64,000 bases of DNA from an uncultured delta proteobacterium (GCA_963784735.1 CAWASK010000001.1:426020-490019); one strand, 5' to 3'; positions 1,075 through 63,150 are shown, counted from the first letter of the stretch. The notes: generated by a model from the letters alone, not told the origin. Program-made: numbers and translations.

Positions 1075-1360
1075 ATACCATTGATCAAAGCACGTTTTGG
1101 CGGGAGTGTCAGGGAACTTCCCTCCGGCTCAAGGTCTTTTGCCTGCGGCAAAATCCCCGATTCGCTCTCCGGGAAATTCCCTGCCCCTCCCGCCTGCCCG
1201 ACACTTAGAAAATAAAAAGACAAAACTACAGATTCAGGAGCGGGCGGGATTTATTCCGGAGGGCAGATTGGCTGGTTCACATTTCGACCCCTTATGTCAT
1301 TATGCACGGCGGTGACGTGAAGCAGACACGGCCCGAGGAATGAAGCCCAACCGCTCCGCC
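1075..1360 (+). repeat. bipartite hairpin repeat, locus A: one M1 module (core 1099-1194) followed by one M2 module (core 1237-1357)
   Basis: Near-identical to sequences at 13775-14275, 19265-19915 (reverse complement) and 37470-37925 (reverse complement). M1 is bounded by GGCGGGAG/CTCCCGCC and M2 by GGAGCGGGCGGG/CCCAACCGCTCC. It lies between the convergent gap and uvrA stop codons. Confidence 0.9.
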
Positions 1361-1385: not shown

Positions 1386-4300
1386 TTAATCAGAAGATCG
1401 AATATATTTTTGCAGGAACCTGGCCGTGTGCGATTTTGCGGCCTGTTTGAGGAGTTCGTAGGGGTTGCCCTCGGCGACGACCCTGCCGCCGCCGGCGCCG
1501 CCCTCGGGGCCGAGGTCGATGATGTGGTCGGCGCTGCGGATGACGTCGAGGTTGTGTTCGATCACGATCACGGTGTGGCCGCGGTCGACAAGGCGCTGCA
1601 GGACCGCGAGCAGCCGCTCCGTGTCGGCCATGTGCAGGCCGGTGGTCGGCTCGTCGAGGATGTAGAGGGCGCGGCCGTTGCCCCAGCCCAGTTCCCTGGC
1701 CAGTTTGATCCGCTGCGCCTCGCCGCCCGAGAGGGTCGGGCTCGACTGCCCGAAGGTCAGGTAATCCAGCCCTATGTCGTTGAGGAGCTTGAGGGCGCCC
1801 TTGAGAGAGCTGATCGAGGAGAACAGTTCAAGGCCTTCCCGGAAGCTCATGCCCATCACGTCGCTGATGTTCTTCCCCTTGTAGAGGATGTCCAGGGTCT
1901 CCTCGTTGTACCTCTTCCCCCCGCAGTCGCTCGCATTCGATGTAAACGTCGGGGAGGAAATTCATTTCGACCTTGATCGTCCCCTGCCCCGCGCAGGTCT
2001 CGCAGCGGCCGCCTTTCACGTTGAAGGAAAACCGTCCGGGCCCGTACCCGCGCATCCTCGCTTCGGGGACCATCGAGAAGAGCTTCCTGATCTCGTCAAG
2101 GATGCCGACATACGTGGCGGGCGTGGAGCGCGGTGTCCGGCCGATGGGCGAATGGTCGATCTCCACGGCCCTCGTTATGCCTTCCCACCCGGAAATATTT
2201 GCCGGGGAAATGCCGGAGCCGTTTCCGGAAAGGGCCTTTTTCAGGGCCGGGAACAGCACTTCCTTGACCAGCGTGGATTTGCCGGAGCCGCTCACTCCAG
2301 TGACGCACGTCAGGGCGCCCACGGGGAAACGGCAGGAGACCCTTTTTAAATTGTGGAGGGCTGCCCCGCGCAGCTCCAGCCACTGTCCGTTGGAGCGTCA
2401 GCCGCGAGTCGATTTTCCTCTCGCGCCCGTTGAGGAAGGCCCCGGTCACCGAAGCCGGGTTGGCCCGGATTTCCTTCATGGTGCCCTGGGCAATTATCCT
2501 CCCGCCCTCGGGGCCGGCGCCGGGGCCGAGGTCGATGATGTGGTCGGCGCTGCGGATGGTCTCCTCGTCGTGCTCGACAACGAGGATGGAATTCCCCCTC
2601 TGCTGCAGTTTCCGCAGGGTGGAGATCAGCATCTTGTTGTCCCTGGGGTGGAGGCCTATCGTGGGCTCGTCCAGGATGTAGCAGATCCCGCGCAGGTTGG
2701 AGCCGAGCTGCGCGGCTAGCCTGATCCGCTGCGCTTCGCCCCCCGAGAGGGTGTCTCCCCGGCGGTCGAGCCCCAGGTAGCCGAGCCCCACCTCGTTGAG
2801 GAATTCGAGGCGCGGCAGGAGCTCTTTCATTATGCCGTCGGCGATCCGGGCCTCCCTTCCCCGGAACCGGTAAGCATCGATCATCTTCAAGGCGTCGGCC
2901 GCCGGAAGGCTTGTGAGTTCGCCGATGCCGACCCCCTTGAGCAGGACGGCCCGCGCTTCCTCGCGCAGCCGGCTCCCGCCGCATCGCGGGCAGGGGGAGT
3001 CGCCCATGAACGGCTCCATCGCTTCGAGTTCGTCCGTGTCGGCGAATTCGCGGTATTCCCTCAGGAGCGGGACAAGTCCCCTGAATCCGCTGTCGTTGCC
3101 TTCACCGTTTGCGCCCCACAGCAGAAGGCCTCGGTCTGAATCCTCCATTTTCTTAAGGGGGAGCTGCAGGGGGAGGCGCGTCTTTTCGCGGATTTCCTGG
3201 AGGAGCCGGCGCGAGATTTTCCTGAGCGCCCCGGCCTGCATTTCCTCGAGAGTCTGCGAAACAGATTTTTCGGCATCAGGGAAAAGCAGCCCGGGAACGA
3301 TGTCCTCGAGGCTCCCGATCCCCTCGCATTCCGGGCACTGCCCCTGGCGGCTGTTGAAGGAAAAAAGCCTGGGGTCGAGCGGCTCGAACCCGCGGCTGCA
3401 GCGGCTGCAGTAAAGCCTGTCGCTGTAAGTCTTCGTCCCGGACCCTTCCTCGAAGGCCCTGATAGTGCCCTTGCCGAAATCGAGTGCCGTCCGGAGCATT
3501 TCGGGCAGGGTGCCGTTTTTGACCGCACCGGCGATGTCGCCGACAACGATATCTATGTCATGCTCCTTGAAGCGGCCGAGGGCGGGTAGGGGGGCCAGGT
3601 CCCTGCAGGCTCGCCGTCAATGAGGGCCCGGGAATAGCCGAGCTTCACCATTTTCTTGAGGAGCTCCGAGTGGATCCCCTTTTTCCCGGTGACCAGGGGC
3701 GCCATGAGGAGCGATCCCGTCGACTTGAAACTCGAGCGGAGCACCCCGGCAAGCCCCTCGGCGGAATGGGCGCTGATCTCGTCCCCGCAGCCCGGGCAGT
3801 GCTGCCTGCCCAGCTTGCAGTAGAGCAGGCGCAGGTAATGGTATATCTCCGTGAGGGTGGCGACCGTCGAGCGCCTGCCGGACCGGCTCATCCTCTGCTC
3901 CAGGGCCACGGTCGGGCGGGATGCCCTCGAGGCTGTCGATTTCCGGCCGGTCCATTATCTTCATGTACTGGCGGATGTAAGTGGGCAGGGACTCGATATA
4001 GCGGCGCTGGCCCTCCGCGAACAGCAGGTCGAAGGCCAGTGTCGATTTTCCCGAGCCGCTCACCCCTGTGATCGCCACCATTTTTTCCCGGGGCACGCTG
4101 ACATCGATGTTCTTGAGGTTGTGCTCGCGCGCGCCCTTGACGAGAATGAAATCGCTTGCCGGTGCGCTGGCCGGCCCGGTCCGCTTTGCCGCGCGTCCCG
4201 GCCGGGGCCTGATTGGTGCCTTGAGAGCGGGCGCAGGTATTGTCCCGTAGGGGAGCCAAGCTCCGCAATTTCTTCGGGAGTGCCTTCTCCCACGATACAG

Positions 4301-7013
4301 CCCCCGCCGTCGCCCCCTTCCGGGCCGAGGTCTATCACGTGGTCGGCGCATTTGATCAGTTCGGGGTTGTGCTCGATGACGAGAATCGAGTTGCCGTTTT
4401 CGATCAGGCTCGAGAAGGCCGAGATCAGGCGGGCGACATCGGCCGCGTGCAGGCCGACCGTGGGCTCGTCGAAGATGAACAGGGTGCCGGGGCCGCCTTT
4501 TTCCCCTGCCTGCGCCTTGCCCAGCTCCCGGGCGAGCTTCAGCCTCTGGGCCTCTCCCCCCGAGAGGGTGTTTATGGACTGGCCCAGCCTGAGATAACCG
4601 AGCCCGACCGCGATTACGGGCTGCAGCGGCCTGGTTATCCTCGGGTAAGCGGCAAAGAAGGATGCGGCTTCCTGCACGGTCAAGGAAAGGATGTCATGAA
4701 TGTTCTTCCCCTCGAACCTGACCTCGAGGACGTCGTCCCGGAAGCGCCTGCCGTCGCATGTCGGGCAGGGCAGGTAGATGTCGGACAGGAACTGCATCTC
4801 GACCTTTTCGAATCCCTCGCCGCCGCATTCCTCGCAGCGCCCCCCGGCCGCGTTGAAAGAGAAATGGGAGGGCTTGTAGCCGCGCACCTGGGCAAGCGGC
4901 TGGGAGGCGAGGATTGTCCGGATACCGTCGAGGCACTTGAGGTATGTTGCCGGCGTGGCGCGCGGGGTCCGGCCGATCGGCTCCTGGTCGACGAGGGAGA
5001 CGGAGCCCACCAGCTCGTGCCCCTTTATTTCCCCTATTTTTCCGGCGCCGGCGCGCTTCTCCGCCCTTGAGGTAGTGCAGGTTGCGATACAGCGTTTCCA
5101 CGGCAAGCGTGCTCTTGCCCGAACCGGAAACCCCGGTGAGCGCCGTCATCACGCCCAGGGGTATCCTGACGTCGATTCCCTTGAGGTTATGCTCCGAGGC
5201 GCCTCGCAATTCCAGGAACCCGGAAGGGCTCCTCCTCTTTTCCGGGACCGGGATCGCGAGCCGTCCCGCGAGGTAGCTGCCGGTGAGGGACCTTTTTTCC
5301 CCGCAGATCCTGCCGGCGGGGCCGCTGTAGATCAGCTGCCCTCCTTTTTCCCCGGCCCCGGGCCCCAGGTCGATTACGTTGTCGGCGGACCTGATGATCT
5401 CGGGGTCGTGTTCGACAACGACAATGGTGTTGCCCTGGTCCCGCAGTTTTTTCAGCAGCCCGATCAGGCGGGCCGAATCGCGCGGGTGCAGGCCCACCGT
5501 CGGCTCGTCAAGGATGTAGAGGGTGTTCACCAGGGACGAGCCGAGGGCCTTTGTCAGGCTCACCCTTTCCATCTCCCCTCCGGAAAGCGTGCGGGACTGC
5601 CTGTCCAGGGAAAGGTATCCGAGCCCGACGTCGAGCAGGTAACCCAGCCTGCGGTTTATTTCCCCGAGCAGCATCAGGGAGGCTTCATCGAGTCCCTGCG
5701 GACGAGAGCTCCCGGAAGAATTTATGAGAACCGGAAATGGGCATTGCGTAAACTTCCGGGATGCTCCTGCCCCCGATGCGCCAGTTCAGCGCTTCCGGCA
5801 CAAGCCGCGTGCCGCCGCAGGCGGGGCAGGCGTGGTAGCCGCGGTAACGGGCAAGGAACACCCGGACATGGAGCTTGTAGCGCTTCGTCTCGAGCCACTG
5901 GAAAAACCCCCGGACGCCATAGAAACGGGAATCCCCATCGAAAATGGCCTGCTTTATCCGCTTCCGCCAGTTGCGAGAAGGGGACATCGACCGGGATCTT
6001 CCTGCGGGCGCAGAAATTCAGCAGGTCCTGGAACTCTTCGCGGGCTATTCCGGTCCAGGGCTTGACGGCGCCCTCGCGGACCGTCTTCCTCGGGTCCGGC
6101 ACCACGAGATCGGGGTCGATGTCGATGATCCTGCCGAAGCCCCGGCACTCCGGGCAGGCCCCCGCGGGCGAGTTAAATGAAAACAGGTTGGGGGAGGGCT
6201 CCGTGAACTTCAGGGAGCAGTACGGGCATTCGAGGCGCGAACTGAAGCGGAGCGGCTCTGCACCATTAGAGCCGGGCAGGTGAACGTTCACATAGCCTTT
6301 TCCCGCGGTCAGGGCGGCCTCGACGGAATCTATGATCCTCTTTCGCTCGCCGTTTTTAAGGACCAGCCGGTCTACCAGGAGGTCGGGCAGGAGCCGGGCA
6401 GGAGGTCGGGCAATGGTTCCCCGCTGCCGGCATCGGCGGCCCGAAAGTCGTCTACGTCCATGACCCGGCCGTCTTTCCAGAGCCTGTCGAAGCCCGCGGC
6501 CCTGAGCGTGTCCGGGTTGTATTCATTTTGTATTTCCGGGGGCAGGGGGGCGGTTATCACCAGCGGGCCGCCTTCCCCGGCGCCGGATTCCCTGATTGCC
6601 TGGTAAACGGATTGCGGCGTGTGCTTCCTCACGGTCCTGCCGCACCCCGGGCAGTGGAGCTTCGCGGTGCGCGCGAAGAGCATTTTCATGAAATCGTTGA
6701 TTTCGGTGATCGTGCCGACTGTCGAGCGGGAAGTGCGGACGGGGTCTCCCTGCTCGATCGCCAGGGCCGGCGGGATGCCCTCGATCTTTTCCGCCCTGGG
6801 CCTGTCCATGCGCTCCATGAACTGGCGGGCGTACGGCGAAAACGTCTCGATGTAGCGCCTCTGCCCCTCGGCATAAAGGGTGTCGAAGGCGAGCGAGGAC
6901 TTGCCGGCCCCGCTCACGCCCGTTATGACCGTTATGCGGTTGAGCGGGATCTCCAGGTCAAAACCCTTGAGGTTGTTGTGGCTCGCGCCTTTGATTCTTA
7001 TGCAGTTATCCAT
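1386..7013 (-). CDS. uvrA: tandem-fused double UvrA-like excinuclease ABC subunit A (about 1875 codons); reading frame changes at least 9 times in this assembly
   Basis: ORF fragments 6372-7013, 5722-6291, 5685-5987, 4694-5674, 4060-5106, 3617-4351, 3553-3909, 2096-3499, 1828-2322 and 1386-1859 tile two complete UvrA units. There are four Walker A motifs (TGVSG[AS]GKS), four LSGGE signatures and Zn-finger CxxC pairs. The first unit ends ...TGQYLRP; after a Pro/Ala/Arg-rich linker the second unit starts [17 protein letters not shown] and ends ...[15 protein letters not shown]. Confidence 0.8.
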
Positions 7014-13725: not shown

Positions 13726-13774
13726 GGGGTTTCTGCACGGGCGATTACATGCTCGCTCCGGGGTGCTTGTAACG

Positions 13775-14275
13775 CTTAAAAAAATTCCACGAATCAAGGC
13801 ACGTTTTGGCGGGAGTGTCAGGGAACTTCCCTCCGGCTCAAGGTCTTTTGCCTGCGGCAAAAGCCCCGATTCGCTCTCCGGGAAATTCCCTGCCCCTCCC
13901 GCCTGCCAAACTTTTAAGAAGATCAAGAGGGAAAAACTACAGCTCCGGCGCTCTGTAAAGCTTAAGAAAATTCCATAACCCAAAGCTCGTTTTGCGGGAT
14001 GGGTGAGGGAACTTCCCTTCGGCTCAAGGTCTTTTGCCTTCGGCAAAATCCCCGATTCGCCTGCGGGAAATTCCCTCCCCCCTCCCGCGTCCCCAACTCT
14101 GCAAAAAATAAAGAAAACAATGCGGCGTGAGGAGCGGGCGGGATTTATTCCGGAGGGCAGATTGGCTGGTTCACAATTCGACCACTTATATCATTATGCA
14201 CGGCGGTGACGTGAAGCAGACACGGCCCGAGGAATGAAGCCCGACCTGCTCCGGGGGCTCGGTAAAATGTAAAAA
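13775..14275 (+). repeat. bipartite hairpin repeat, locus B: M1 (13808-13903), M2-less spacer, M1 (13993-14089), M2 (14131-14252)
   Basis: Direct sequence identity with loci A, C and D. It lies between the convergent radical-SAM gene and the DUF4387 gene. Confidence 0.9.
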
Positions 14276-18485: not shown

Positions 18486-19229
18486 ATGAATATGGAGATA
18501 AAGGACAGATTTGTTTCGCTCTGGTCGAAGTATTTCGGCGGGGCTGAACTCCCGATGGTTTTTTATTACACAGATGATGAGAGCTGCGCCGAAAAGGCGC
18601 CCGTCCCTGTCGGCCACAGGTGCATTATTGGTGCGCTCTCCAAAGTGCGCAGAGGCAAGCCGCTGTGCTTCGATGCTGAAACTGCAGGGTGTGGGGGGGC
18701 CAGGAGGTATTGCGGATTTTCCGGCGTGATCGAGAAGAACTTCACCTTCTTCCTGTCTTACGGCATCCCGGGCAAGGTCGAGGGCGAGCGCTACAAGAGA
18801 ACGCCCGAACTCGTCCAGAAATTCCTTGACCAGTCAACCGTTTTCAAAGCGCCGGGCCGGTTCATCGTCTTCAAGCGCTGGGACGCGATAAACGAAAACG
18901 ACGAGCCGGAAGGAGTGATATTTTATGCGCCGCCCGACGTGATTTCCGGGCTCTTCACCCTTGCCAATTTCGACAGGGAAGATGCGAACGGGGTCATTGC
19001 CCCCTTTGCAGCAGGCTGCGGTACCATCGTCCAGTTCCCTTACCTGGAAAAAAACGCGGAGAGGCCCCGGGCGGTCCTGGGCACCTTCGATGTTTCTGCA
19101 CGGCCTTTCGTTGGGAAGAACGAGCTGAGCATGGCGTTCCCGATAAAACGCTTCCTCCAGATCGTGGAACTCATGGAGGAGAGTTTCCTTATTACGCCGT
19201 CGTGGGACAGGGTGAAGAAAAGGATCTGA
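18486..19229 (+). CDS. DUF169 domain protein
   Basis: AAGGAGG ribosome-binding site before the ATG at 18486. The blocks HRCIIGAL...CGGARRYCGF and APFAAGCGTIV match my recollection of DUF169. Confidence 0.75.
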   Translation: MNMEIKDRFVSLWSKYFGGAELPMVFYYTDDESCAEKAPVPVGHRCIIGALSKVRRGKPLCFDAETAGCGGARRYCGFSGVIEKNFTFFLSYGIPGKVEGERYKRTPELVQKFLDQSTVFKAPGRFIVFKRWDAINENDEPEGVIFYAPPDVISGLFTLANFDREDANGVIAPFAAGCGTIVQFPYLEKNAERPRAVLGTFDVSARPFVGKNELSMAFPIKRFLQIVELMEESFLITPSWDRVKKRI

Positions 19230-19264
19230 CCGCAACCTTTCCGGTTTGCCGACAACTCACGGGG

Positions 19265-19915
19265 CAATACGTGCTTTGGTTTATGCGGATTATTTTAATC
19301 TTTACCGAGCCCCCGGAGCGGTCGGGCTTCATTCCTGCGGTCTGTGTCTGCTTCACGTCACCGCCGTGCATAATGATATAAGTGGTCGAATTGTGAAGCG
19401 GCCAATCTGCCCTCCGGAATAAATCCCGCCCGCTCCTCACGCTGTAGTTTATTTTCTTTTTATTTTTAAGTTTAGGCAGGCGGGAGGGGCAGGGAATTTC
19501 CCGGAGAGCGAATCGGGGATTTTGCCGAAGGCAAAAGACCTTGAGCCGAAGGGAAGTTCCCTCACTCTCCCGCCAAAACGTGCTTTGAGTTATGGAATTA
19601 TTTTAATCTTTACCGAGCCCCCGGAGCGGTCGGGCTTCATTCCTGCGGTCTGTGTCCGCTTCACGTCACCGCGGTGCATAATGACATAAATGGTCGAATT
19701 GTGAAGTCGGCCAAATCAGCCCTCCGGAATAAATCCCGCCCGCTCCTCACGCTGTAGTTTATTTTTTTTATTATTTTTAAGCTTTAGGTCAGGCGGGAGG
19801 GGCAGGGAATTTCCCGGAGAGCGAATCGGGGATTTTGCCGCAGGCAAAAGACCTTGAGCCGAAGGGAAGTTCCCTGACCCTCCCGCCAAAACGCGCTTTG
19901 ATTCATGGGATCCGG
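19265..19915 (-). repeat. bipartite hairpin repeat, locus C: two complete M1+M2 units in tandem (period 308-313 bp) plus a truncated third. M2 at 19315-19436 and 19623-19746; M1 at 19479-19574 and 19792-19887.
   Basis: Reverse complement of loci A and B. It starts about 35 nt after the DUF169 stop and is antisense to both flanking + strand genes. Confidence 0.9.
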
Positions 19916-20024
19916 CATTGGCGTTACCCGGGACAATCTTTTTTGCCCGCCGTATTTTCGAGTTGTCTTTCAGGGGCATGATCGTCTAATATCATCAGAC
20001 AATTAAGTGTTTAAAGGAGACAGC

Positions 20025-29598: not shown

Positions 29599-31549
<1,951 letters not shown>

Positions 31550-31566
31550 TTAAATTATTATTGTTT

Positions 31567-32143
31567 TTATGTGTTCTTGGCGACGGAAACCTTGGCCGGC
31601 CTTAAAAGCCTGCCGTTGAGAAGGTAGCCCTTTTCAAATTCCTCGACGATCTTGTTATCATTCTCTGCGTTTCCCTCGACGCGCATGACGGCCTCGTGCA
31701 TAGTTGGGGTCAAATTCCCGGTCCTTTGTTTCAAAGGTTCCACGCCGTACTTGGTCAGGAGTTCTTTAATTGTCCCTGGATCATATCCAGGCCTTCGAGG
31801 AAAGAGTCGAAGTCCCTGGAGTTTCCCGCGTGCTCGCGGGCCCTTTCCATGTTGTCGAGGACGCGAAAGAAGGTCCTTCAGGATATTCTCATTCGCGTAT
31901 TTTATATAATCCGGCCCGTTCCTTGGCCGCGCGTTTCTTATAATTTTCCAGGTCGGCGACCGCCCTCAAATACTTGTCGTAGTTTGCCGCAGCTTCCTTT
32001 TGTTTTTCCTCCAGCTGTTCCTGTAGATCGTACTGTCTCCGGCTTGCTTCTCCTCGGCATTGGCCTGGCCTGCGGCGCTTTCTTTATTTTCGGGTGATGT
32101 TTTTCACCCTGGTGGTCTTTCTTCATTTTCCAAAACACTCCGA

Positions 32144-32147
<4 letters not shown>
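31567..32147 (-). CDS. grpE: nucleotide exchange factor GrpE (several apparent frameshifts)
   Basis: Frame-corrected translation gives ...[15 protein letters not shown]... and the C-terminal ...[20 protein letters not shown]. It lies directly upstream of dnaK. The ATG overlaps the stop of the preceding gene (ATGA). Confidence 0.7.
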
Positions 32148-32748
<601 letters not shown>

Positions 32749-32791
32749 TTAAAAGGATTGTCCCGCGCAGGATTTTCCGCGATTTCTATCT

Positions 32792-32819
32792 AATATAAGA
32801 ACGGCCCCCCCACTGTCAA
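32792..32819 (-). promoter_or_regulatory. sigma70-like promoter for the SIS-grpE-dnaK operon
   Basis: On the - strand: TTGACA (32819-32814), a 16-nt spacer, then TATATT (32797-32792), about 55 nt upstream of the ATG at 32735. Motif-only prediction. Confidence 0.35.
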
Positions 32820-32907
32820 GGAAGCGGGGCTAAAAAAGGGTTCTTTTTATAAGAGCCTAGCATAAAAACCAGTATTTTTTAGTGAAATTGAGGCACTTGG
32901 GAGGGAT

Positions 32908-34907
32908 TCAGGAATATGCTTTTTCCGTGTCGGCCAAGTTCGGCCGATTTACCCGGATTGAGGCTGGAGCTGCGGGCGAAATATCCGGTGACCTTGCTGA
33001 TGATTTCGATTTCCCCTGCCGAGGACCGGGGGCACTAGGTGAAATGCCCGGCAAGGTCTTCAGACATGCAAACAGCCCGTGAAAACAGGGGCGAATGTCA
33101 GCTGCCAGATTGCCCGTTTCAAAGAAGAGTCTTAGCGTCCGGCATGTTTGCGAGCTCTCCGCGACTCCTTGACCGGAAGCCCGGAACAGGCCCCTTCGAA
33201 AAGCTTGTGGAAGATGCCTTCTATGCGGACCTCTTTCCGGGGTCCAGGCCAAGCGCCGAGGGCAGGCATGCGGAATCGGAATAATACACCGCCTCCCCTG
33301 GCCAGTTGCCCCTGATAAATCTCGCGGATTCCGGAGAGAACTTTTTCAGGTCGAGCCTGGCGAATTTGTACGAAGCGCTCTCGGCGGGCGTCTGCCCCAG
33401 GAGGACCTTAAGCCGTGCTTTTTCGCGAGCGCGTCAGTCTTTTTTCTGATAAAATGAGATCACTCCAGGCAGAAATCGATCGGCTTCGCGTCTTTTTCAA
33501 ACCAAACGCCTTTATGGATTTGGCAAAGCTCGGCCAGACCGGCGATTGACCGATTAGTAGCCGCTTTTTCATCTTCAGGTACGGTTCGCCGTCCTTCTTT
33601 ATAGTCAGGAATGACAGGGGGCCCTGCTCTTCGCCCAGGAGCCTGCATGAAGTCCGCCTTTTCGGCATGGGCCCGGACGGCGGTTTCCAGCATATTTTCG
33701 ATAGCCGCAAAAAGCTTCGCATCGCTTTCGCCGCCAGGAATCCGGCCCTCGCCAGGTTGATGGTCACATTCTGGATCAGGGCGAGGCGCATTCTCCACGG
33801 TTCGGCCCCCGAGGCGACTTTGCCGCCGGGCAGTGACGAGTGCTTTTCCCGGTCAAAAATGAAATGCGGATTGCCGGTCTTTGCCGCGGCTTCGCAGCCC
33901 TGGAGCAAAAATCCCCTGTTTTCGGGCAAAAAAGTCTGTTTCGTCAGATGGATAAGGGGGATGGGGAAAAAAAACGGACGGCCCCTGGCGTCGCCTTCCT
34001 TGAACACTTCCAGCACGGCCGGGCGAACCTCCGTGCATCCGGCAGGTAGTGGGAATATTTTCTGCCCGTCTCCACGCCGCCGGGGCCGATGGCCCGGCCG
34101 TCCGCAAATGGGCCGGTACGTCCCAGTAAATGTCCATGGAGGACACATGAGCTGCCCGCCCCGCGCCGTGGCGAGCTGGGAGAATTCGAAGACCAGCATC
34201 TGGGCGAGCTGTTTTATGGCGTTGTCGCTCATGCCCGCCAGGTATGGGGCAAAAAGGATGTTGACGGCGTCCCACCGCACCCAGCTCGAGAAGTTCCCCT
34301 GGAGGGCCGCGCTGAACCTGACCATGTGGGCCAGGAGGACCTCGGCATGCTTTGCGGGGTCGGCCACCGAAAACCAGTCCGGCAGGTCGAGCCCGAACTT
34401 CTTCACGTATTCAAGGGACTGGAAGACGCTGCGGGGACGGTCGATATAGCCCAGGTCGTGGATGTGGATGTCCCCGGAGATATGGGCCTCGGCAACTTCC
34501 GGCGAGAAGACATTCGTGAGGGCATATTCGCGCTTGATGCCTTCGGCCAGGGCGAGGTTGGTGCCCTCCGGCCAGTGGGGCACGTTGGCATTTTCCTTGT
34601 TGCGGTGAATGATCAGGTCCTGGACGTCATAGAGCGGGAAACCCAGGCGGGCATGCATGCGCCGGGCCTTCTCGAGGCCCCTCTCCACGAGCCTGGCGTT
34701 GACGAGCTCGCGGACGAGCGAAGCGGTGAGGGTGGCTATGCCCGAAGAGAATATCTGCTTTTCGACCTCGCGGCTGATCTCCTCGGCGGTTTCCAGGGGT
34801 ATCGCGGCCTCGCGGATCAGGGCGTCAATGATCCTCTGGCGGTTCCACTGGACGATTTCCTCCCCCGAAGTCCTGACGAAAAGGGTGATATCGGTTATTT
34901 CGCGCAT
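32908..34907 (-). CDS. nrdD: anaerobic (class III) ribonucleoside-triphosphate reductase NrdD (many apparent frameshifts; alternative start 34961)
   Basis: N-terminal ATP-cone-like VRTSGEEIVQWNRQRIIDALIRE, then HIHDLGY, then LLGQTPAESASYKFARLDLKKF. The C-terminal FAPVFTGC...CPRC-like Zn site and the glycyl-radical motif SKVTGYFA (about 32975-32998) are followed by NPGKSAEL. Confidence 0.75.
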
Positions 34908-36473: not shown

Positions 36474-37419
36474 GCGTGGTTCCTCAACTGCAGCTCGATC
36501 GGGTGCGGGTTGAGGTAGACCTGGCTCCTGGAGGTACGGCTTGTCGTATTTCCTGACAAAATGGGCTATCAGGGTCACGGGGACGATCAGGGGGAGGGAC
36601 CCCTTGCGGTACATGGCGATGACTTCGAGGATCTCCTGCTTCTCGTCATGGGTCAGGTCGCGTTTGAAATAGCCCAGCATGTGCTCGAGGACATTTGAGT
36701 TTTTCCGGGGGGTCGCCTTGAGCCGCAGGGCCTCCATGAGCGCGGCCTGGTATTCTTCCCGGAGCAGCCCCGGGGGGATCTTCCCCGCCCGTGCCACGAG
36801 TTTTCCCATGGCGCGGTAATGGGTCTCGCTGTGCGACAGGATCAGGAGCTTGTGCCGCGTATGGAAGTCCACGACCCCGGCCGGGGCCTTGTCCGTCTCG
36901 GACCACCGCTTCCAGACAAAGATCCGCTCGATGAAGTTTTCGCGGATCTCCGGGTCATGGAGCCTGCCCTCGTCCTCCACGGGGATCAGGGGGAAACGCT
37001 CCATGAAGATGCGGGCGAAAATGCCGGAGCCGGTCTTGGAAAAAGCCCCCGGGCCTAGAATAGACCCTGACCCTTTCCATGCCGCTCGACGGGGAGCCGC
37101 TCTTGAAGACGAACCCGCACAGCCCCTCTCCTGCCAACTCCTCCATGCGCCGGTGCGCCCAATCCACCATGGTCCCGGTAAAGTCCGTCCCGGTCTTTAT
37201 CCCGACGAGGCGCGGCCTTGCCGGGTCGCCGGCAAGATGCATTGCCTCCCGGGGCACCCCCAGCCCGGCCTCCACTTCGGGGCAGACGGGCACGAATTCC
37301 ACGTACCTGCCCAGGATGTCCCTCAGAAAGGTGTCCAGCTTGTGGCCCCCGTCATAGCGGACTTTTGCCCCGAGCAGGCAGGAGCTGATGCCGAGCCTGA
37401 TTTTTTCCTGCTGTTCCAT
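36470..37419 (-). CDS. DUF523-DUF1722 fusion protein (YbgA-like; 2 apparent frameshifts)
   Basis: N-terminal LGISSCLLGAKVRYDGGHK (DUF523) and C-terminal DUF1722 blocks. Removing one base near 36520 restores the family-typical ...YLQEQVYLNPHPIELQLRNHA-stop ending. Confidence 0.7.
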
Positions 37420-37469: not shown

Positions 37470-37925
37470 TAACTTTACCGAGCCCCCGGAGCGGTCGGGC
37501 TTCATTCCTGCGGTCTGTGTCTGCTTCACGTCACCGCCGTGCATAATGACATAAGTGGTCGAATTGTGAACCAGCCAATCAGCCCTCCGGAATAAATCCC
37601 GCCCGCTCCTCACGCTATAGTTTTTTTTATTTTTTCAGTGTTGGGCAGGCGGGCGGGGGAGGGAATTTCCCGCAGGCGAATCGGGGATTTTGCCGAAGGC
37701 AAAAGACCTTGAGCCGAAGGGAAGTTCCCTCACACTCCCGCCAAAACGTGCTTTGGTTTATGGAATTATTTTAAGCCTTACCGAGCCCCCGGAGCGGTCG
37801 GGCTTCATTCCTCGGGCCGTGTCTGCTTCACGTCACCGCCGTGCATGATGACATAAGTGGTTGAAATGTGAACCAGCCAATCAGCCCTCCGGAATAAATC
37901 CCGCCCGCTCCTCACGCCGTATTCC
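37470..37925 (-). repeat. bipartite hairpin repeat, locus D: M2 (37488-37609), M1 (37648-37742), M2 (37791-37911)
   Basis: Reverse complement of loci A and B. It lies between two co-directional - strand genes (the glycosyltransferase stop and the ybgA-like start). Confidence 0.9.
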
Positions 37926-37972: not shown

Positions 37973-39059
37973 TCAGGATCCGCAGGCCATTTCTTCCAGG
38001 AATCTTGCGGCAGTGCGGAGGCTCTGTTCCCAGGTGGGGAGGGACAGAGAGAAATGGCGCGCGGCGATGCCCATCTCCATGAGGAGTTTCCTGTCTGCGT
38101 GGAGCGCGCCAAGGTGTCGGGCGAGGGTGGCATCGTCGCCCGGCTTGACGAGGAAGCCGTTCAAGCCATGCTGGACGATTTCCGGGACGCCCCCCACGCG
38201 GCAGCCGATCGCCGGGAGGCCGAACCCCATGGCCTCGGCGTAAATGATCCCGTAGCCCTCGTAGGAGGAGGGCACCGCGAGGACATGGGCCTGGTCGAGG
38301 AGGACCTCCAGGATATCGTCCTCAACGTGCCCGAGCACTTCTATGCGGGTATCGAGCCCATTGTCCCGGATCCGCCGCTTTATTTCCCCCGCATATTGCG
38401 GGTCGAATTCCCAGCCTCCCGCAATGGACAGCCTCCAGTCCCCGTAGGGGACTTTCCTCAACCCGGAAATCAGGGTGTGGAGGCCTTTCCGGGGGATGAT
38501 GTTCCCCGCGAACAGGACCCTCAGGGGCCCGGGCTCAAGGGACTTTTTCTTCAGGCTTTCCTCGTCGAAGCGGTGTTCGAAGCGGTCGGCGCCGGGCGGG
38601 GCGATGATGAACGGCCTGTCCGAACCCGTCAGGTTCCTTATGGAGACGTAAGTCGCCTTGCTGTTGAGCACGAAACCGTCCACGCCGGCGAGGTACATGT
38701 CCTCGTGGAACATGGCCCGGCATGTGTCCGCGATCGCTCCTTCCTCGCTGCAGCGCAGGTGGTGGACGATCGAGGCTATCGGGACCCCCCATTGCCTGAG
38801 CCAGGGATTCAGCCTGCACAGCACGGGGTGGGCCAGTTCGTCCTGCAGGATGAGGTCATAGTCGTCCGGGTCCAGCTGCCGGACCCGGGCCCATACGGAA
38901 TCCAGCTGGGCTTCCGACGGGTAATAGTCGAGCCAGGGGAGCGAGCACGATATCGACCCGGTGGCCGGCAGCGCGGAGGTGTCCCACGAGTTTCCTGTCA
39001 TAGAGGAAACCGCCCGAATTCATCTCGAGGCTGCCGAAGAGGAAGAAAACGATCCGCAT
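37973..39059 (-). CDS. GT4-family (GT-B) glycosyltransferase (1 apparent frameshift near 38950)
   Basis: N-terminal MRIVFFLFGSLEMNSGG and the C-terminal E-x7-E region VPSSYEGYGIIYAEAMGFGLPAIG...PEIV. Confidence 0.8.
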
Positions 39060-57810: not shown

Positions 57811-59604
57811 TTAATACATTCTGTCCAGAAGGTCCTTATACTTTCTTCGATAACCCTCTTCTTCACTTCATCGTGGGGGTAAGTTCCCCCGATTCCACCG
57901 AGAACGGCGGGCACTACGCGGAAATACTTAACCTGCATGAACCGGGGCATTCTTTCATTGGCCCGGTCTATTTCCTCTGCACCCGGAGAGCACAGCGGGT
58001 CCTGACAGCTCCTGCCAGGGCATGTCCTCCATCCCGAAGGTGCGCGCGGTCTGCCTCGTCTCGGACCTCATTGAGGACAACGAGCGCGGTGAGGTAGTTG
58101 CGCCGGTCGCCGTGGATATAGGCCATCTCGATGTGCGGGCACAGCAGGAGCTCTCTGCTCCACTGCCGCGGGGGCGATGTTCTTGCCTGCCGAGGTGATG
58201 ATGAGCTGCTTTTTCCGGTCTGTGATGTAAATCCAGCCCTCTTCGTCAATCCTGCCGATGTCGCCGGTCCGGAAAAAGCCGTCCGGGGTGAAGGCCTCCC
58301 GGGTCTCTTCGTCATTGCGCCAGTAACCCTTGAAAATATTGGGCCCCTTCACCTCCAGTTCGCCGTCTGCGGCAATGCGCACGCTCACGCGCGGGAGCGC
58401 CTTCCCGACGGATCCGAAGCGGAACTGCCCGGGGGTGTTGAGCGAATACGGCGTCGTCCCCTCGGTTGCCCCCCATCCCTCGATAATCAGTACCCCGAGG
58501 GCGTGGAAGAATTCGGCCAGCTCCCGGCTGAGCGGGGCGCCCCCCGAAACGAAAAACTCTATCCTGCCCCCGAACAGGCCCCGGACCTTGGCCGAGGACA
58601 AGCCTGTCCGCCGCCCCGAGCTTCCATTTCATGACGCGGGTCAGCTTCCCTCCCCTGCGGCTCGACGGCCGCGCATTCACGGGCCGTGTTCATCGACCAG
58701 TCGAAAAGTTTCCTTTTCCATGCCGGGGAGGAGCGCACCCCGGCCATTATCCGGCCGTGGATCTTTTCGAAGACCCGGGGGACGCAGACCGCGAAACGGG
58801 GCCGGACCTCCTGGAAATTCCGGGCTACCTGGTCAAGGCTCTCCGCGTACGCGATGGTCCTGCCCAGGTACAGCACCAGGTAATACCCTGCGAACCTCTC
58901 GAAGGCGTGGGCAAGGGGGAGGAAGCTCAGGTTCAGGGTGAGCCTGTCCGTGTCCCCGACGGCCGCAACGATCAGCTCCGACGTCTTCAGGTAATTGTTG
59001 TGGGTCAGGACCGCGCCTTTGGGTTTGCCGGTCGTGCCGCTCGTGTACACGATGCACATCGGGTCCTCGCCCGTTCGCCAGCCTGGCCGCCGCGATAATC
59101 CTGTCAAGGGTTTCCGGGGAAGGATCTTCCGCGAGCAGGCTGGCGAACGGCTCGACCCAGCCGTCGGCGCCAAGGGACGGGGGCGGGTCAAAGACAAAAA
59201 CCCTGCGTACGCAGGGGATTGCCCCCCGGACTTTCATTATCTTTTCGAGCTGGGCCCCGTCTTCGACAAAAAGGTACGAGGCCTCCAGGTCATTGATGAT
59301 AAATTCCGCCTCGTCGGCCAGGCTGGTGCTGTAGATGGCGGATGAGACCGCGCCGGCGAGGAGCGAGCCCAGGTCGGCATAGGCCCATTCAGGGCGGTTA
59401 TTCGAAAGGACCGCGACGCGCTCGCCCGGATGGAGCCCGCTGCGGACGAGGCCGGCGGCGACTCTCATGCAGATGTCCCCCAGGCTCGCCGTAGGTCAGG
59501 GTGCGCCAGGCGCCAGCCGACTTGAACATCAGGGCGGGGGAACCGGAGAGCCCGGAAAAGTTTCTCAACAGCACGTCGTTGAAGTTCCGGAAATTCGCTT
59601 CCAA
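57811..59604 (-). CDS. long-chain-fatty-acid--CoA ligase (AMP-binding; at least 5 apparent frameshifts)
   Basis: IVYTSGTTGKPKGAVLTH, GWGATE, FRTGDIGRIDEEGWIYITDRKK and C-terminal GELTPTMKLKRR blocks, tiled over the ORFs 59398-59604, 58833-59468, 58559-59197, 58068-58601 and 57968-58315. Confidence 0.85.
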
Positions 59605-59660
59605 CAGCCCAGCTCCCGAAATTTAATCAAGCGGCTTCCGCCGACTGTCGCCCAGCCCGC

Positions 59661-61835
59661 TCAGTCCTGATGGAACTTCTGCCCGGCAGAGGCTTTAGCC
59701 CGGAGCAGGTCCGCGGCAATGAAACGCGGGCCGTTTTTCTCCCGCAGCTCTTCGAGCCTGCGGCAGACTGCATCGGCCCCGAGCGAGTCGATGTAACGGA
59801 ACGGGCCCCCCAGGTAGGGCGGAAAACCGAGACCCAGCACCGCCCCCAGGTCGCCGTCGCGGGGTGAGGCGAGGATGCCGTCCTGCAGGCAGTGGACGGC
59901 CTCGTTGACCATTACGAGGGTGAGCCGGTCCTGAATTTCCCGGGCCTCGAAAGACTTCCGGTGCGGCCCCCCGAAAAAGTCGTAGATTTGTTTGTTGACC
60001 TTTTTCCCCGGTTTCCCGAGCAGCCGGCCCAGCCTGTTCTTCCCGCCGTCGTAAGAGTAAAACCCCTTCCTGTTCTTCCGGCCTTTGTAGCCGGCGTGGA
60101 GGATGTTTTCCATGGCCGCGCTCGTCCTGAGCCCCCTCCAGGTGAACAGCGGCGCGAGGACATTGTAGACATGCGCCCCCACATCGATCCCCACCTCGTC
60201 GAGCAGGGTGATCGGGCCCACGGCAAAACCGAGCTGCCGCATGGCGGCGTCTATCTCCCTCACGTCCCCGCCTTCCTCGAGCATAACCATCGCCTCGTTG
60301 AGCAGGGGGGCGAGTATCCTCGTGGTGTAAAAGCCCGGGCCGTCCCTGACCACGATCACGTGCTTGCCCTGGCGGATGCCCGCCTCGACGCAGGTCGCCC
60401 TTACCCAGTCCGCCGTCTTGTCAGTAACCACGATCTCCAGCAGGGGCATCTTCGGGACCGGCGAGAAGTAGTGCATGCCGATCACCAGCTCCGGGCGCTT
60501 TGCCTGGCTGGCTATGTCTGCGATCGGGATCGAAGACGTGTTGCTGGCGAAAATGGTGTCCTGCCGGGCGGAATCCTCGATCTCGGCAAGGGCGCGGCGC
60601 TTCAGGTCGAGGTCTTCAAAGACCGCCTCGATGACCAGGTCGGCCCTGGCGAACCCGGAGTTATCGAGGGTCCCCGTTATCCTGCTGAATATGCGGTCCC
60701 GCTCGAAAGGCAGGAGCGCCCCGCGCCTTACCTTCCTGTCCAGGTCCTTCCAGACATCCCTCTCGCCGTGGCCCAGCGCGGCATGGGTCATGTCTTTCAA
60801 CAGCACTTCCATCCCGTTGACGGCGCTGATGTTGGCGATCCCGGACCCCATCAGCCCGGCGCCGAGTATCCCCAGGTTTTTCACGGGGCGCACAAGTTCG
60901 GCCGGGGGGCTTTTCCGCAGTGCATTCATCCCGAAAAAGAGCCCCATGAGCTGTTTTGCCTGGGGGCCCAAGACCAGTTCGTCGAAGAGCCGCTCCTCGG
61001 TCCTGTAGCCCTCCCCGGGGCCTTTTTCCGTCCCGGCCTCCACGCAGTCTATTATTTTAAGGGGCGCAGGGTAGTTGCCCTTCGTCTTCCTCAGGGTGCC
61101 CTTGCGGGCCCTGTCGTACATGAAACGGCGCCCGGCCGGGTTGGATTCGAGGATGGCCGCCGCAATCCCCCCCTTTTTCTTCTTCCGCCTCCCGGCGCAA
61201 AGTCTGAGCGGGGAATCCTCGACCCCATTCACCAGCTCGCCGGCGGCCTTGATCGCGGCTTCGTGGAGGCCGTAGGGGTGGATGAGCACGTCGACAAGCC
61301 CCATCCTGAGGGCCTGGCGCGCGTAAATGTTCCTGCCGGTGAGCATCATCTCCAGGGCCCTGCGGATGCCGATGAGCCTAGGGAGCCTCTGGGTCCCCCC
61401 GCCGGCCGGCAGCAGGCCCAGCTTCATTTCGGGAAGGGCGAAAACGGTCCGCCGGTCGTCGCTGGCCATCCGGTAATGGCAGGCGAGGGCGACCTCGAGC
61501 CCGCCGCCGAGGGCGGCCCCGTGGATGGCGGCGATTACCGGCCGGGAGAAGTTTTCCAGCCGGTCGAGGACGGCATGCCCGGCCCGGCTCAGGTCGTAGG
61601 CCTCGCAGGGCGAATTCATTTTCAGGACCTTCTCGATGTCAGCGCCCGCGATGAAATCTTCCTTCCGGCTGGCCAGGACGACGGCCTTCACGCCGGGGTC
61701 TTTTTCAATGCCGTCGAGGATCGGAGAAAATTCTTCGACGAGGTCCCGGGAGATCTTGTTGACCTTTTCCCCCGGCTCATCGAGCCAGACCACGGCTACG
61801 CTGTCGCGTCTTTCCACTTGTGCAACCGGCATCAA
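59661..61835 (-). CDS. multifunctional enoyl-CoA hydratase / 3-hydroxyacyl-CoA dehydrogenase (FadB/FadJ-like)
   Basis: Intact 724-aa ORF with an N-terminal crotonase fold (AAIHGAALGGGLEVALAC) followed by an NAD-binding domain, GILGAGLMGSGIA. Confidence 0.9.
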   Translation of the reverse strand: MMPVAQVERRDSVAVVWLDEPGEKVNKISRDLVEEFSPILDGIEKDPGVKAVVLASRKEDFIAGADIEKVLKMNSPCEAYDLSRAGHAVLDRLENFSRPVIAAIHGAALGGGLEVALACHYRMASDDRRTVFALPEMKLGLLPAGGGTQRLPRLIGIRRALEMMLTGRNIYARQALRMGLVDVLIHPYGLHEAAIKAAGELVNGVEDSPLRLCAGRRKKKKGGIAAAILESNPAGRRFMYDRARKGTLRKTKGNYPAPLKIIDCVEAGTEKGPGEGYRTEERLFDELVLGPQAKQLMGLFFGMNALRKSPPAELVRPVKNLGILGAGLMGSGIANISAVNGMEVLLKDMTHAALGHGERDVWKDLDRKVRRGALLPFERDRIFSRITGTLDNSGFARADLVIEAVFEDLDLKRRALAEIEDSARQDTIFASNTSSIPIADIASQAKRPELVIGMHYFSPVPKMPLLEIVVTDKTADWVRATCVEAGIRQGKHVIVVRDGPGFYTTRILAPLLNEAMVMLEEGGDVREIDAAMRQLGFAVGPITLLDEVGIDVGAHVYNVLAPLFTWRGLRTSAAMENILHAGYKGRKNRKGFYSYDGGKNRLGRLLGKPGKKVNKQIYDFFGGPHRKSFEAREIQDRLTLVMVNEAVHCLQDGILASPRDGDLGAVLGLGFPPYLGGPFRYIDSLGADAVCRRLEELREKNGPRFIAADLLRAKASAGQKFHQD

Positions 61836-61867
61836 CTGTCCTCAATTGGCAATGGTTTTACCTGTAT

Positions 61868-63150
61868 CTCTCCAGGAGAATGGCGTTGCCGAGGCCGCCG
61901 GCGGCGCACCCCGTCACTATCGCGAACCGGCCGTCCTCCCGGATCAGCCGGTTCGCGGCGGTCGTCACGAGCCTGGCGCCCGTCGCCCCGAAGGGGTGCC
62001 CGAGGGAGAGCGACCCGCCCAGGGTGTTGAGTTTTTCCAGCGGGCACCTCGCCGACCTTTTTCGTCCGGCCCAGCTTCTCGACGGCGAATTTGTCCGAGG
62101 CCAGGCATTTCATGTTTGCCAGGACCTGCCCCGCGAAGGCCTCGTGGGATTCGAACACGTCGATGTCGGAAAGCTCCAGGCCGGTGCGGGCGAGGAGCTG
62201 AGACACCGAGTACGCCGGCCCCAGCAGCAGCTCCTCTTCGGGGTCCTGCCCGGAATAGGCGTAATCCCTTATGAACGCCTTGGGACGTACCCTTCCGCGA
62301 GGGCCGCCTCCTCCGAGGCGATCAGCACGGCGGCGGCGCCGTCGGTGAGGAAAGAGGAATTGCCGGCAGTTACCGTGCCGTAGGGGCGCTGGAAGGCCGG
62401 TTTCAGTCCGGCGAGCTGTTCATAGGAAGTGTCCGCGCGAAAGCCGTTGTCCCTGACGACGGGCGTGAACTCCGGGGGGACCCTTACAGGCTCTATCTCC
62501 GGGGCAAGGAGGCCGTCCGCGGTCGCCTTGGCCGCGAGCTGGTTGGAGCGCAGGGCAAAGAAATCCTGGTCCTCGCGGCTGACGCCGAGGCGCGCCGCAA
62601 GCCGGTCGCAGTCCATGCCCATAATCCTGCCCGTTGAAAATTCGGCTATGGAGGGCATCTCCGGGAGCAGGTCGGCTGGCCTCAAGCCCTTCAAGATTTT
62701 CAGGTAGTCGAGGATGCCCTTGGCCCTTGACAGGGCGATGAGCTTCGAACGGAACGGTTTCCTGTAAAGGATCGGGATATCGGTGAGGCTCTCGGTCCCT
62801 CCGGCAAGCACGAACCGGGCTTGCCCCGCCGCGATTGCCTCGACGCCGGAAGTTATGGCCCGGTTTGCGGAGATGCAGGCCGTGCTCACGGTGTATGCCG
62901 ACGCGGAGCGCGGGACCCCGACGGCAAGCGCCGCTTCCCGGGCGACATTGGAGGTCTGGAGCCTGGCGACCACGGTCCCCATTATGACGGAACCCACCTT
63001 TGCCGGGTCCATGCCGGTCTTTCCGAGGAGGGCCTTGAGGGCGAGCCGCCCGAGATCATACGAGGAAAGGGCCTTGTATCCCGTCCCCGAGCGCTGGAAG
63101 GGTATGCGGCAGCCCTCGACAAGGACGATTTTTCTGCAGTTTTCAGGCAT
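61868..63150 (-). CDS. acetyl-CoA C-acyltransferase (thiolase; 2 apparent frameshifts near 62280 and 62040)
   Basis: Active-site VSTACISANRAI, then NSSFLTDGAAAVL, and after frame correction GHPFGATGARL and CAAGGLGNAILLERYR-stop. Confidence 0.85.

Follow-up and report, generated by a model that had tools for sequence, protein, structure and literature searches.

Organization of the repeats in the window

The window analysed comprised 64,000 nucleotides from the genome of an uncultured delta proteobacterium, and the region under study (19265-19915) lay in the intergenic spacer between a DUF169 gene and an operon with a small ORF and a HAD gene. This spacer was occupied by a tandem array of two hairpin modules, M1 (~96 nt) and M2 (~122 nt), which appeared six times each in the window, spread over four intergenic loci and covering ~3% of the 64 kb. 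An earlier note, made from the sequence alone, had described these modules; the sequence was found to read as claimed, the profile searches agreed with it, and the gene map confirmed that all copies were intergenic. On the display strand, defined as the strand where M2 precedes M1, all loci followed the same order of M2, a T-rich spacer of ~42 nt, M1 and a spacer of ~46 nt, in agreement with the fixed order and relative orientation previously proposed. Using profiles built from the window, M1 was located at 19480-19574, 19793-19887 and 37649-37742 on the plus strand and at 1193-1098, 13902-13807 and 14088-13995 on the minus strand (E values from 1e-26 to 1e-30), while M2 was located at 19314-19439, 19622-19749, 37487-37612 and 37790-37914 on the plus strand and at 1358-1235 and 14253-14128 on the minus strand (E values from 1e-40 to 1e-44). 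The mean column identity among copies was 87-89%, and no extra M1 was found in the window by the covariance model with the filters off.

The array at 19265-19915, all of it on the plus strand, started at its left edge with a partial M1-to-M2 spacer (acgtgctttggtttatgcggattattttaatctttaccgagccc, 19268-19313), which aligned with the full spacer at 19577-19621. It was followed by the first M2 (ccGGAGCGGTCGGGCTTCATTCC...GGAATAAATCCCGCCCGCTCC, 19314-19439, nhmmer E value of 2.5e-43), the T-rich M2-to-M1 linker called spacer A (tcacgctgtagtttattttctttttatttttaagtttaggca, 19440-19479), which was kept in most family-A copies, and the first M1, a rod-shaped hairpin (GGCGGGAGGGG...CTCTCCCGCC, 19480-19576, nhmmer E value of 1.3e-30, covariance model score of 116.5 bits). 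The M1-to-M2 linker, or spacer B, was read from the sequence as aaaacgtgctttgagttatggaattattttaatctttaccgagccc (19577-19621) and led to the second M2 (19622-19749, nhmmer E value of 3.2e-40) and the second M1 (19793-19888, 120 bits), after which a 24-nt tail (aaaacgcgctttgattcatgggat) closed the array at ~19912, a flank boundary common to the window and the metagenome contig L082. The start-to-start distances between units were 308, 313 and 302 bp by repeat search, while the two-copy array was not among the repeats listed by Tandem Repeats Finder. The unit of 308-313 bp proposed in the earlier note stands, with two full units in this array, but its truncated third copy at 19265 consists of only ~45 nt of spacer. 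Outside the repeat, a promoter-like sequence TTGTCT-N17-TAATAT was present at 19968-19997 (+), a putative promoter of the downstream small-ORF/HAD operon; it was kept in the empty-site relatives L133, L139, L144 and L147 and delimits the insertion zone on the right side.

The other three loci presented variations of the same arrangement. Locus 1 (1075-1360, minus strand) was of the form M2-M1, with M2 (1235-1358, nhmmer E value of 1.1e-41) lying directly 3' of a UvrA-like ABC gene on the same strand and missing in the orthologous contig L095, and with M1 (1193-1098) extended by the tail aaaacgtgctttgatcaatgg (1075-1193, 119.1 bits). Locus 2 (13757-14275, minus strand) began with an M2 (14128-14253, nhmmer E value of 2e-41) downstream of a same-strand atuA operon, which had Pfam matches to AtuA and AtuA_ferredoxin, and continued with an M1 of degenerate outer stem (CGCGGGAGG...CATCCCGCA, 13995-14089, 102.7 bits). 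Next to it, spacer B was followed by an M2-less junction (gagcgccggagc|tgtagttt, 13930-13994), where, compared with the full units, M2 was deleted between GC microhomologies (ccggagc|tgtag, near 13948). The locus ended with a further M1 (13902-13807) and a spacer B that stopped at ccccggagcg, the first bases of M2 (13757-13905, 117.9 bits), its overall form being M2-M1-[M2 deleted]-M1. Finally, locus 4 (37470-37925, plus strand) was of the form M2-M1-M2, with one M2 at 37487-37612 (nhmmer E value of 6.2e-44), an M1 at 37648-37746 with GCAGGCG in place of GGAGAGCG (113.6 bits) and a second M2 at 37790-37914 (nhmmer E value of 6.9e-42), ~10 nt after which the array stopped.

Structure and variation of the modules

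Both modules folded much better than shuffled sequence, with the stems described in the earlier note, the first M1 reaching -53.8 kcal/mol (z -6.1) on the display strand vs. -39.6 kcal/mol on the opposite strand, and M2 (copy 1) reaching -49.7 kcal/mol (z -4.6). The same rod architecture was found in the 28 full-length M1 copies (28/28), consisting, from the base upward, of a basal stem of 21-24 bp, a 3x3 internal loop, a short helix and a GAAU bulge, followed in the upper part by a CGGGG/CCUUG helix with two G-U pairs and the tip UUUUGCC-NNN-GGCAAAA. Moreover, the display strand was the more stable one in all 28 copies (mean of -64.9 vs. -51.1 kcal/mol), which means that the mismatches are systematically G-U (G-T) on one strand. 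In the alignment fitted to the model, 97.4% of the cells were paired and double changes affected 5 pairs (20 cells); none of 500 shuffles reached the observed values, and sliding the pairing partner gave 44-65% of paired cells. The M1 rod has been kept on one strand through compensating changes, and this one-sided G-U pattern together with the compensating stems indicates that the hairpin forms and matters in the single-stranded state on one strand. Such a state would be explained by a single-stranded DNA intermediate of transposition or, in view of the co-orientation bias, by the RNA of the upstream gene's 3' UTR, and the two are not mutually exclusive.

Four subfamilies of M1 were distinguished, amounting to few independent events, in which the tip and the internal loops were common while the basal stems were quite different yet fully compensating. 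Subfamily A, the window type, was present at at least 16 loci, subfamily B in contigs L086/L105 and L098, subfamily C in L081 and L101, and subfamily D in L091, so that three of the four were found at two or more different loci (B and C at two unrelated loci each). Subfamilies B to D showed 70-77% identity to family A (with a range of 71-82% when all pairs of subfamilies are considered) and presented M1 without M2 and without the family-A flanks. The conserved tip region was GCGAAUC-GGGG-A-UUUUGCC-NNN-GGCAAAA-GA-CCUU-GAGCCGAAGGG. Part of the apparent invariance of the tip follows from the use of a 22-base tip pattern to collect the metagenome copies; the conservation reached 10-14 nt beyond this pattern on each side, in contigs of 49-63% G+C.

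M2 showed a strand preference opposite to that of M1, the other strand being more stable in 14 of 15 copies (-56.3 vs. -49.8 kcal/mol). Its terminal stem does span the 21 positions first described, but the strand quoted has one G-T in addition to the 2 mismatches, with 18/21 pairs on one strand. Furthermore, the left arm of the M2 reverse strand matched the left arm of M1 at 23 of 29 positions, the global alignment being weak (z ~2), and weak matches of the M1 covariance model appeared on the reverse strand of M2, which were not recovered with the filters off. These similarities hint, as a lead only, that M2 might be related to M1 in inverted form, with an expanded tip, in the manner of BIME arrays. 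Among other readings, a dif/Xer site in the M2 tip was discarded for having no XerD arm, and a tRNA-like cloverleaf and CRISPR or toxin-antitoxin repeats were also rejected. A coding mini-gene was discarded as well, since indels of 1 and 2 nt inside M1 and M2 break the frames between copies; no frame was shared, as expected from the earlier observation that the ORFs crossing the copies are not conserved.

Distribution, host and assembly

Neither M1 nor M2 matched any Rfam 15 family at gathering thresholds over the whole window, and only chance-level miRNA and lncRNA matches were obtained for 19200-19980 with E values up to 10. A 24-base exact pattern of the M1 core had 0 matches in 185,579 species genomes (the host species not being among them), one unit had no blastn match in plasmid and phage records, and the M2 pattern had 0 matches in viral contigs. 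A 17-base M1 core was present in 17 viral contigs by chance, none of which fitted the covariance model. The literature, when searched by sequence strings, returned one chance primer match only, and nothing relevant was found on repeats in Syntrophaceae, Smithella and Syntrophus. The M1/M2 family is real and, with respect to Rfam, phage and plasmid records and the literature, so far uncatalogued. This agrees with its initial description as a mosaic repeat recalling BIME or BOX elements that could not be placed in any family, and its behaviour fits that of interspersed palindromic repeats, with copies scattered over unrelated gene ends, empty orthologous sites in relatives, loss of modules by deletion at microhomologies and copy numbers that differ from strain to strain. 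By means of a 22-base M1 pattern, M1 was detected in 29 JGI metagenome contigs, in other gene contexts, and many of these contigs ended inside the repeat. Ten of their flanking genes were confirmed by Pfam, all of them unrelated and housekeeping. In total, near-identical copies (~90-99%) appeared at at least 16 unlinked loci, for which some form of dispersal is needed.

A total of ~60 ORFs of the window were scanned, in which every Pfam match corresponded to a housekeeping family and seven ORFs had no match; as stated before, no transposase, reverse transcriptase or Cas gene was among them. The closest GAPDH among the 185,579 species genomes was 73% identical and belonged to a Syntrophales MAG, and the closest named relatives of the HAD and FprA proteins came from Syntrophaceae or Syntrophales MAGs, so the host belongs to an unrepresented Syntrophales-like lineage. 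The GC skew of the window was too weak to relate the orientation of the repeats to replication. Moreover, several genes were split (dnaK, uvrA, thiolase and acyl-CoA ligase), and the window thus probably derives from a long-read assembly with indel errors. These many split genes, typical of an error-prone long-read assembly, and the single unit, instead of two, in the orthologous short-read contig L082 might suggest that the tandem arrangement is an assembly artefact, which is highly improbable given that the M2-M1 and M1-M2-M1 adjacencies recurred in independent short-read contigs (L082, L092, L099, L100 and L109). In addition, the two units at 19265-19915 differed at many positions and are therefore not a duplicated read. 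The arrangement of the modules is thus not an artefact, the two-unit tandem itself being taken from this assembly alone.

Orthologous sites in strains and relatives

Four metagenome contigs were orthologous to the window (92-97% DNA identity), some of which differed in module content. One M2-M1 unit was present in L082 vs. two in the window, where a short-read collapse is possible, and both M2 and the spacer were gone from locus 1 in L095, leaving the junction ccccGGAGCGG|GAGGGAGGGG. Other M2-less junctions, each of them distinct, were found in the window (13948) and in L097, L102, L106 and L090/L108. At least six of these junctions were independent and all were located at short G-rich microhomologies, so they are deletions and not precise excisions. 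Moreover, paralogues inside the window were up to 99% identical, while orthologous copies between strains were 95-96% identical, which suggests ongoing homogenisation, replacement or turnover. The differences seen between strains consisted solely of deletions or changes in copy number at already occupied sites, with no transposition event caught among them.

More distant relatives were represented by contigs fetched via the proteins flanking the main locus. The spacer from DUF169 to the HAD operon measured ~790 nt in the window but was much shorter in relatives of 72-73% protein identity, namely L133 (173 nt) and L139/L140 (184 nt), and the spacer of L139/L140 carried a small REP-like hairpin (GCAGGGGCGTGTTGCAATACGCCCCTGC). 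In L144, the same spacer was ~135 nt long as read from the sequence and held a plain bidirectional terminator. A relative of 79% identity (L128-L132) presented a diverged M2-like hairpin at the DUF169-HAD site, in or near which all five contigs stopped, so that its fold, cut by the contig ends, is uninformative. On the other hand, the M1 variant located 8 nt behind fprA in L086/L105 was absent in L134-L136 (FprA 85% identical), whose spacers of 34-69 nt had an ordinary hairpin. The covariance model found no M1 in 82 kb from the empty-site relatives. The absence of the repeats at the orthologous sites of relatives indicates a lineage-restricted, dispersed insertion, and the modules are lineage-restricted additions at places where terminator or REP-like hairpins usually sit.

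Position, ends and expression signals

Three of the loci in the window lay directly after the stop codon of a same-strand gene (the UvrA-like gene, the atuA operon and DUF169), while locus 4 was antisense to both of its neighbours, a 2-thiouracil desulfurase gene (36955-37419, minus strand) and a glycosyltransferase gene (37973-39001, minus strand). Overall, of the non-redundant family-A loci in which an upstream gene could be seen, 12 of 15 had the display strand on the coding strand of that gene, at a distance of 27-130 nt from its stop codon (two-sided binomial P-value of ~0.035). The opposite orientation relative to the neighbouring genes was found at locus 4 and in L083, L098 and L106. 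Because of their position, the modules would be transcribed as part of the 3' UTR of the gene that precedes them.

No U-tract directly followed either stem at 19265-19915, the sequence after M1 being AAAACG and a T-rich run appearing only 11 nt past M2; the variant in L105 had T-runs on both sides. M1 and M2 are therefore not canonical intrinsic terminators, and the earlier remark that these structures are not simple terminators was borne out by the scan, which found no terminator-like site inside the locus. Similarly, no promoter-like site was found by scanning in front of M1, the sole sigma-70-like match (TTCACA-N16-CATTAT) being located inside M2 on the other strand. Target-site duplications were absent, as the solo copies in L081, L086, L091, L098 and L101 had no flanking direct repeats of at least 3 nt. 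The array ends were ragged and clustered after ...ATGGRATTTTT or after ...CCCCGGAGCG. Moreover, the flanks of M1 were ...GGGCA|GGCGGG and CCGCC|AAAACG, without GTAG or CGTC at the foot of the stem, and the GTAG found 7 nt after M2 varied among copies (GTAG, GCAG, ATAG or GCAT).

Comparison with known repeat families

The ERIC/IRU, Correia (NEMIS), RUP and BOX-type elements are MITE-like repeats with long hairpins, transcribed together with the adjacent genes, and the BOX elements are modular (boxA, boxB and boxC). The modules described here resemble these imperfect palindromes of ~100-150 bp from transcribed intergenic regions, which form long RNA hairpins and whose effects vary with orientation, and their modular build recalls that of BOX. 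Unlike those families, in which terminal inverted repeats are conserved and a target duplication, of TA or similar, is usual, the modules had neither feature, and no sequence similarity to them as far as compared. In contrast to MITEs derived from DDE transposons, the stem ends also differed between subfamilies and no target-site duplication was present at solo copies.

REP, BIME and REPIN sequences with their RAYT (TnpA-REP) transposase have been described in E. coli and Pseudomonas (PMC3116915, PMC3337134, PMC8266576), and REP sequences have a conserved GTAG or CGTC tetranucleotide at one stem foot (PMC3733652). The likeness to REP/BIME lies in the many-copy extragenic palindromes at gene ends, the strand-specific hairpins and the lack of target duplication. 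In particular, as in BIMEs, two module types alternate with two fixed linkers in tandem and the number of units varies between strains, and the geometry of M1 fits that of REPINs, a hairpin of ~100 nt with two inverted, short-palindrome arms (GGGAA-T-TTCCC and GGGAA-G-TTCCC in M1). The opposite orientation in which the two repeat types of BIMEs alternate is only hinted at by the strand preference and left arm of M2. However, the modules are 96 and 122 nt long, not 20-40 nt, so that only the 11-nt arm palindromes GGGAA-N-TTCCC are REP-sized, and the stem foot of M1 lacks the GTAG or CGTC tag. The variation also runs contrary to REP/RAYT co-evolution, as the tip of M1 was conserved and its arms varied between subfamilies; whereas the enzyme-binding arms or ends are conserved in REPINs and MITEs, in M1 the centre is conserved and the base varies.

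Palindrome-associated transposable elements (PATEs) derive from IS200/IS605 (PMC6006769). Two different sub-terminal hairpins, a single-strand, strand-specific logic and the lack of target duplication are shared with them, while precise excision footprints at fixed tetranucleotides were missing, M1 was alone in other subfamilies and no matching TnpA or TnpB was found. As for the enzyme, no mobilising protein was present among the ~60 ORFs of the window or the ten flanking ORFs of the metagenome contigs, and scanning for motifs of the RAYT/IS200 catalytic region gave a negative result; unlike in REP/RAYT systems, no RAYT gene was thus detected in the 64-kb window, the contig flanks or the motif scan. 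Given the differences in size, the missing GTAG/CGTC tag, the lack of terminal repeats and target duplication and the lack of precise excision, the family cannot be filed under REP/RAYT, MITE or IS200-derived elements, although by analogy we lean towards grouping M1/M2 functionally with REPIN/BIME, ERIC and Correia-type elements.

Interpretation and alternatives

The best explanation, with a probability of roughly 0.55, is that M1/M2 are non-autonomous palindromic repeats of the REPIN/BIME or ERIC kind, which would spread in a strand-specific, single-stranded form, lodge at gene ends, change locally by slippage and deletion and probably be co-transcribed in 3' UTRs. Dispersal to many unrelated gene ends, absence at the sites of relatives and strain-variable module content were all observed, and a repeat family is also favoured by the lineage-specific subfamilies, the lack of own promoter and terminator signals and the tolerance of either orientation. 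The copies would spread via a single-stranded intermediate, in which the M1 hairpin, especially its conserved tip and internal loops, would be recognised by an enzyme acting in trans and encoded in another part of the genome, the obvious candidate being an HUH/Y1-type transposase. Insertion would take place just after the stop codon, at the usual position of terminator or REP-like hairpins, and in most cases on the upstream gene's coding strand. The arrays would then expand, contract and drop modules when slipped-strand or unequal recombination takes place between the G-rich ends of the modules, and the M1 rod would serve as a stable stem-loop within the 3' UTR of the upstream gene. Weighing against this reading are the negative search for a mobilising enzyme, the lack of an insertion footprint, the ragged array ends, a pattern of conservation opposite to that of REPINs and MITEs, the part played by the search pattern in the invariance of the tip, the possible short-read collapse in L082 and strain differences limited to deletions and changes in copy number.

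The earlier note had considered a structured multi-copy ncRNA equally possible. In that case, M1 (with or without M2) would be a free-standing ncRNA gene, for example of a protein-sequestering or regulatory small RNA, with the tip as its functional site. The strand-specific folding in 28/28 copies, the compensatory changes between subfamilies, the conservation of the tip and internal loops past the search pattern over contigs of different G+C content, the orientation bias of family A towards the upstream gene and the sigma-70-like site in the other strand of M2 would all suit such genes. However, real sRNA genes are kept at orthologous positions in relatives, which these copies are not; no Rfam family, no promoter-like site before M1 and no U-tract after either hairpin was found, the array ends are ragged, the copies stand in either orientation relative to their neighbours (locus 4, L083, L098 and L106), module loss and truncation are tolerated, and the conservation comes from few independent lineages (four subfamilies). 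Free-standing ncRNA genes are thus less likely than initially supposed, and we regard them as unlikely. Another reading, also doubtful, would make the M1 rod a new kind of mobile structured element with the conserved tip and internal loops as its functional site. This would account for the maintenance of the tip above a basal stem that varies freely as long as it remains paired. Such an element may be a new RNA motif moved between gene ends as a 3'-UTR module, or a recognition hairpin for a single-strand DNA or RNA mobilisation system other than RAYT and IS200.

The two distinct sub-terminal hairpins in fixed order, the lack of target duplication and the strand-specific M1 hairpin would also be compatible with M2 and M1 being the joined left-end and right-end hairpins of a deleted, palindrome-associated IS200/IS605-type element, or of another known MITE. 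Moreover, M2 had a TTAC 10 nt ahead of it and was immediately followed by TCAC, two sequences that presumably recall the cleavage sites of IS608. This origin is nevertheless improbable, as 13-20 nt of the putative left end remain at the M2-less sites, with a different junction each time, as in deletions and not in precise excisions at TTAC|...TCAC|, M1 is alone in three other subfamilies, and TnpA and TnpB genes were absent from the window ORFs, the contig flanks and the motif scan. A dedicated mobility would not be required if the modules were ordinary host 3'-end elements, that is, terminator or mRNA-stabiliser hairpins multiplied by local duplication and recombination alone. They do occupy the exact place of the terminator or REP-like hairpin of relatives and show a co-orientation bias, and local deletion and duplication account for all the changes observed from strain to strain. 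However, local processes would hardly leave ~90-99% identical copies at at least 16 unlinked loci, the stems lack a U-tract, and a plain stabilising hairpin would not require a tip sequence common to the subfamilies, so this explanation is quite unlikely as well.

Interspersed palindromic repeats like those of the preferred REPIN/BIME- or ERIC-like reading have been well studied in enterobacteria and pseudomonads, but hardly in the uncultured anaerobes that dominate sediments. The conserved tip, the covarying base and the consistent strand asymmetry of M1 offer a concrete starting point in the search for the protein or process behind the recognition of the hairpin, and a partner other than a RAYT or IS200-type enzyme would represent a new mobilisation or RNA-binding system. 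Since the repeats sit at the usual terminator positions, they have consequences for the reconstruction of genomes and for the 3' termini of many transcripts; in particular, as observed in many of the 29 metagenome contigs and in the Logan contigs L128-L132, which stop inside a related hairpin, the family repeatedly breaks short-read assemblies.

Other elements at the repeat sites

Besides the two hairpin-forming modules M1 and M2, other palindromic sequences and inserts were found, some of them at or near sites that carry the modules. At the DUF169 hot spot, an extra insert of ~150 nt (L130, positions 1380-1527, compared with 2920-2960 in L128) was detected directly after DUF169, with CAGGGC repeated at its borders. 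It appeared in one sample of the 79% relative, the other four being without it, and is a second polymorphic element at this location. Another insert, 131 nt long, lay between M2 and M1 in a single metagenome contig (L100, 2176-2306) and folded back as a hairpin (GTCATTCTGAGGAGC...GAAGAATCTCT...AGAGATCCTTC...GCTCAGGTGAC), which looks like another, distinct interspersed palindromic repeat within the M2-M1 spacer. Small hairpins resembling REP elements, with the pattern G(T/C)AGGGGCG...CGCCCCT(A/G)C, were present in contigs of relatives and in one M1-bearing contig (L139 at 8714, L140 at 3250, L141 at 1030, L136 at 9638, L137 at 3639, L138 at 3543, L134 at 7015 and L106 at 698), often at the same gene ends that carry M1 or M2 in other lineages.

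Two promoter-like sequences were also identified. The motif TTGTCT-N17-TAAAAT/TAATAT (window 19968-19997) was kept in all the relatives with an empty site (L133, L139, L144 and L147), upstream of an ORF of 56-66 aa that precedes the HAD-rubrerythrin-protease gene row. A sigma-70-like match, TTCACA-N16-CATTAT, was located in the M2 tip on the minus strand (window 19370-19397 and 19678-19705), reading away from M1; this one may be accidental, as L128 has a diverged M2-like hairpin that lacks it.

Other repeats, split genes and gene order

The repeat search also listed two families of direct repeats, D2 and D6 (window 1498-1669, 2514-2685, 4313-4484, 5352-5523 and 1685-5590), which are the ABC ATPase domains duplicated within the UvrA-like gene and are unrelated to M1 or M2. 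Three other regions in which no ORF is convincing are unusually long (window 32647-33407, 31744-32193 and 59198-59660); they gave no Rfam family at gathering thresholds and no match in the M1 or M2 profile search.

Four conserved genes of the window were split, namely the uvrA-like gene (1386-6291), dnaK (29890-31412), an AMP-binding gene (58068-59197) and a thiolase gene (61832-63150), each into at least two neighbouring ORFs matching successive segments of a single Pfam profile. These look like frameshift errors of long-read assembly, or else pseudogenes.

Finally, gene order across the repeat varied among the metagenome contigs: in L094 the repeat links the Se/S-carrier gene to gyrB, whereas in L090 and L108 it links the same gene to trpA, and in L087 the repeat adjoins gyrB. 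Either the strains differ by a rearrangement mediated by the repeat, or the assembly of short reads produced chimeras across it.
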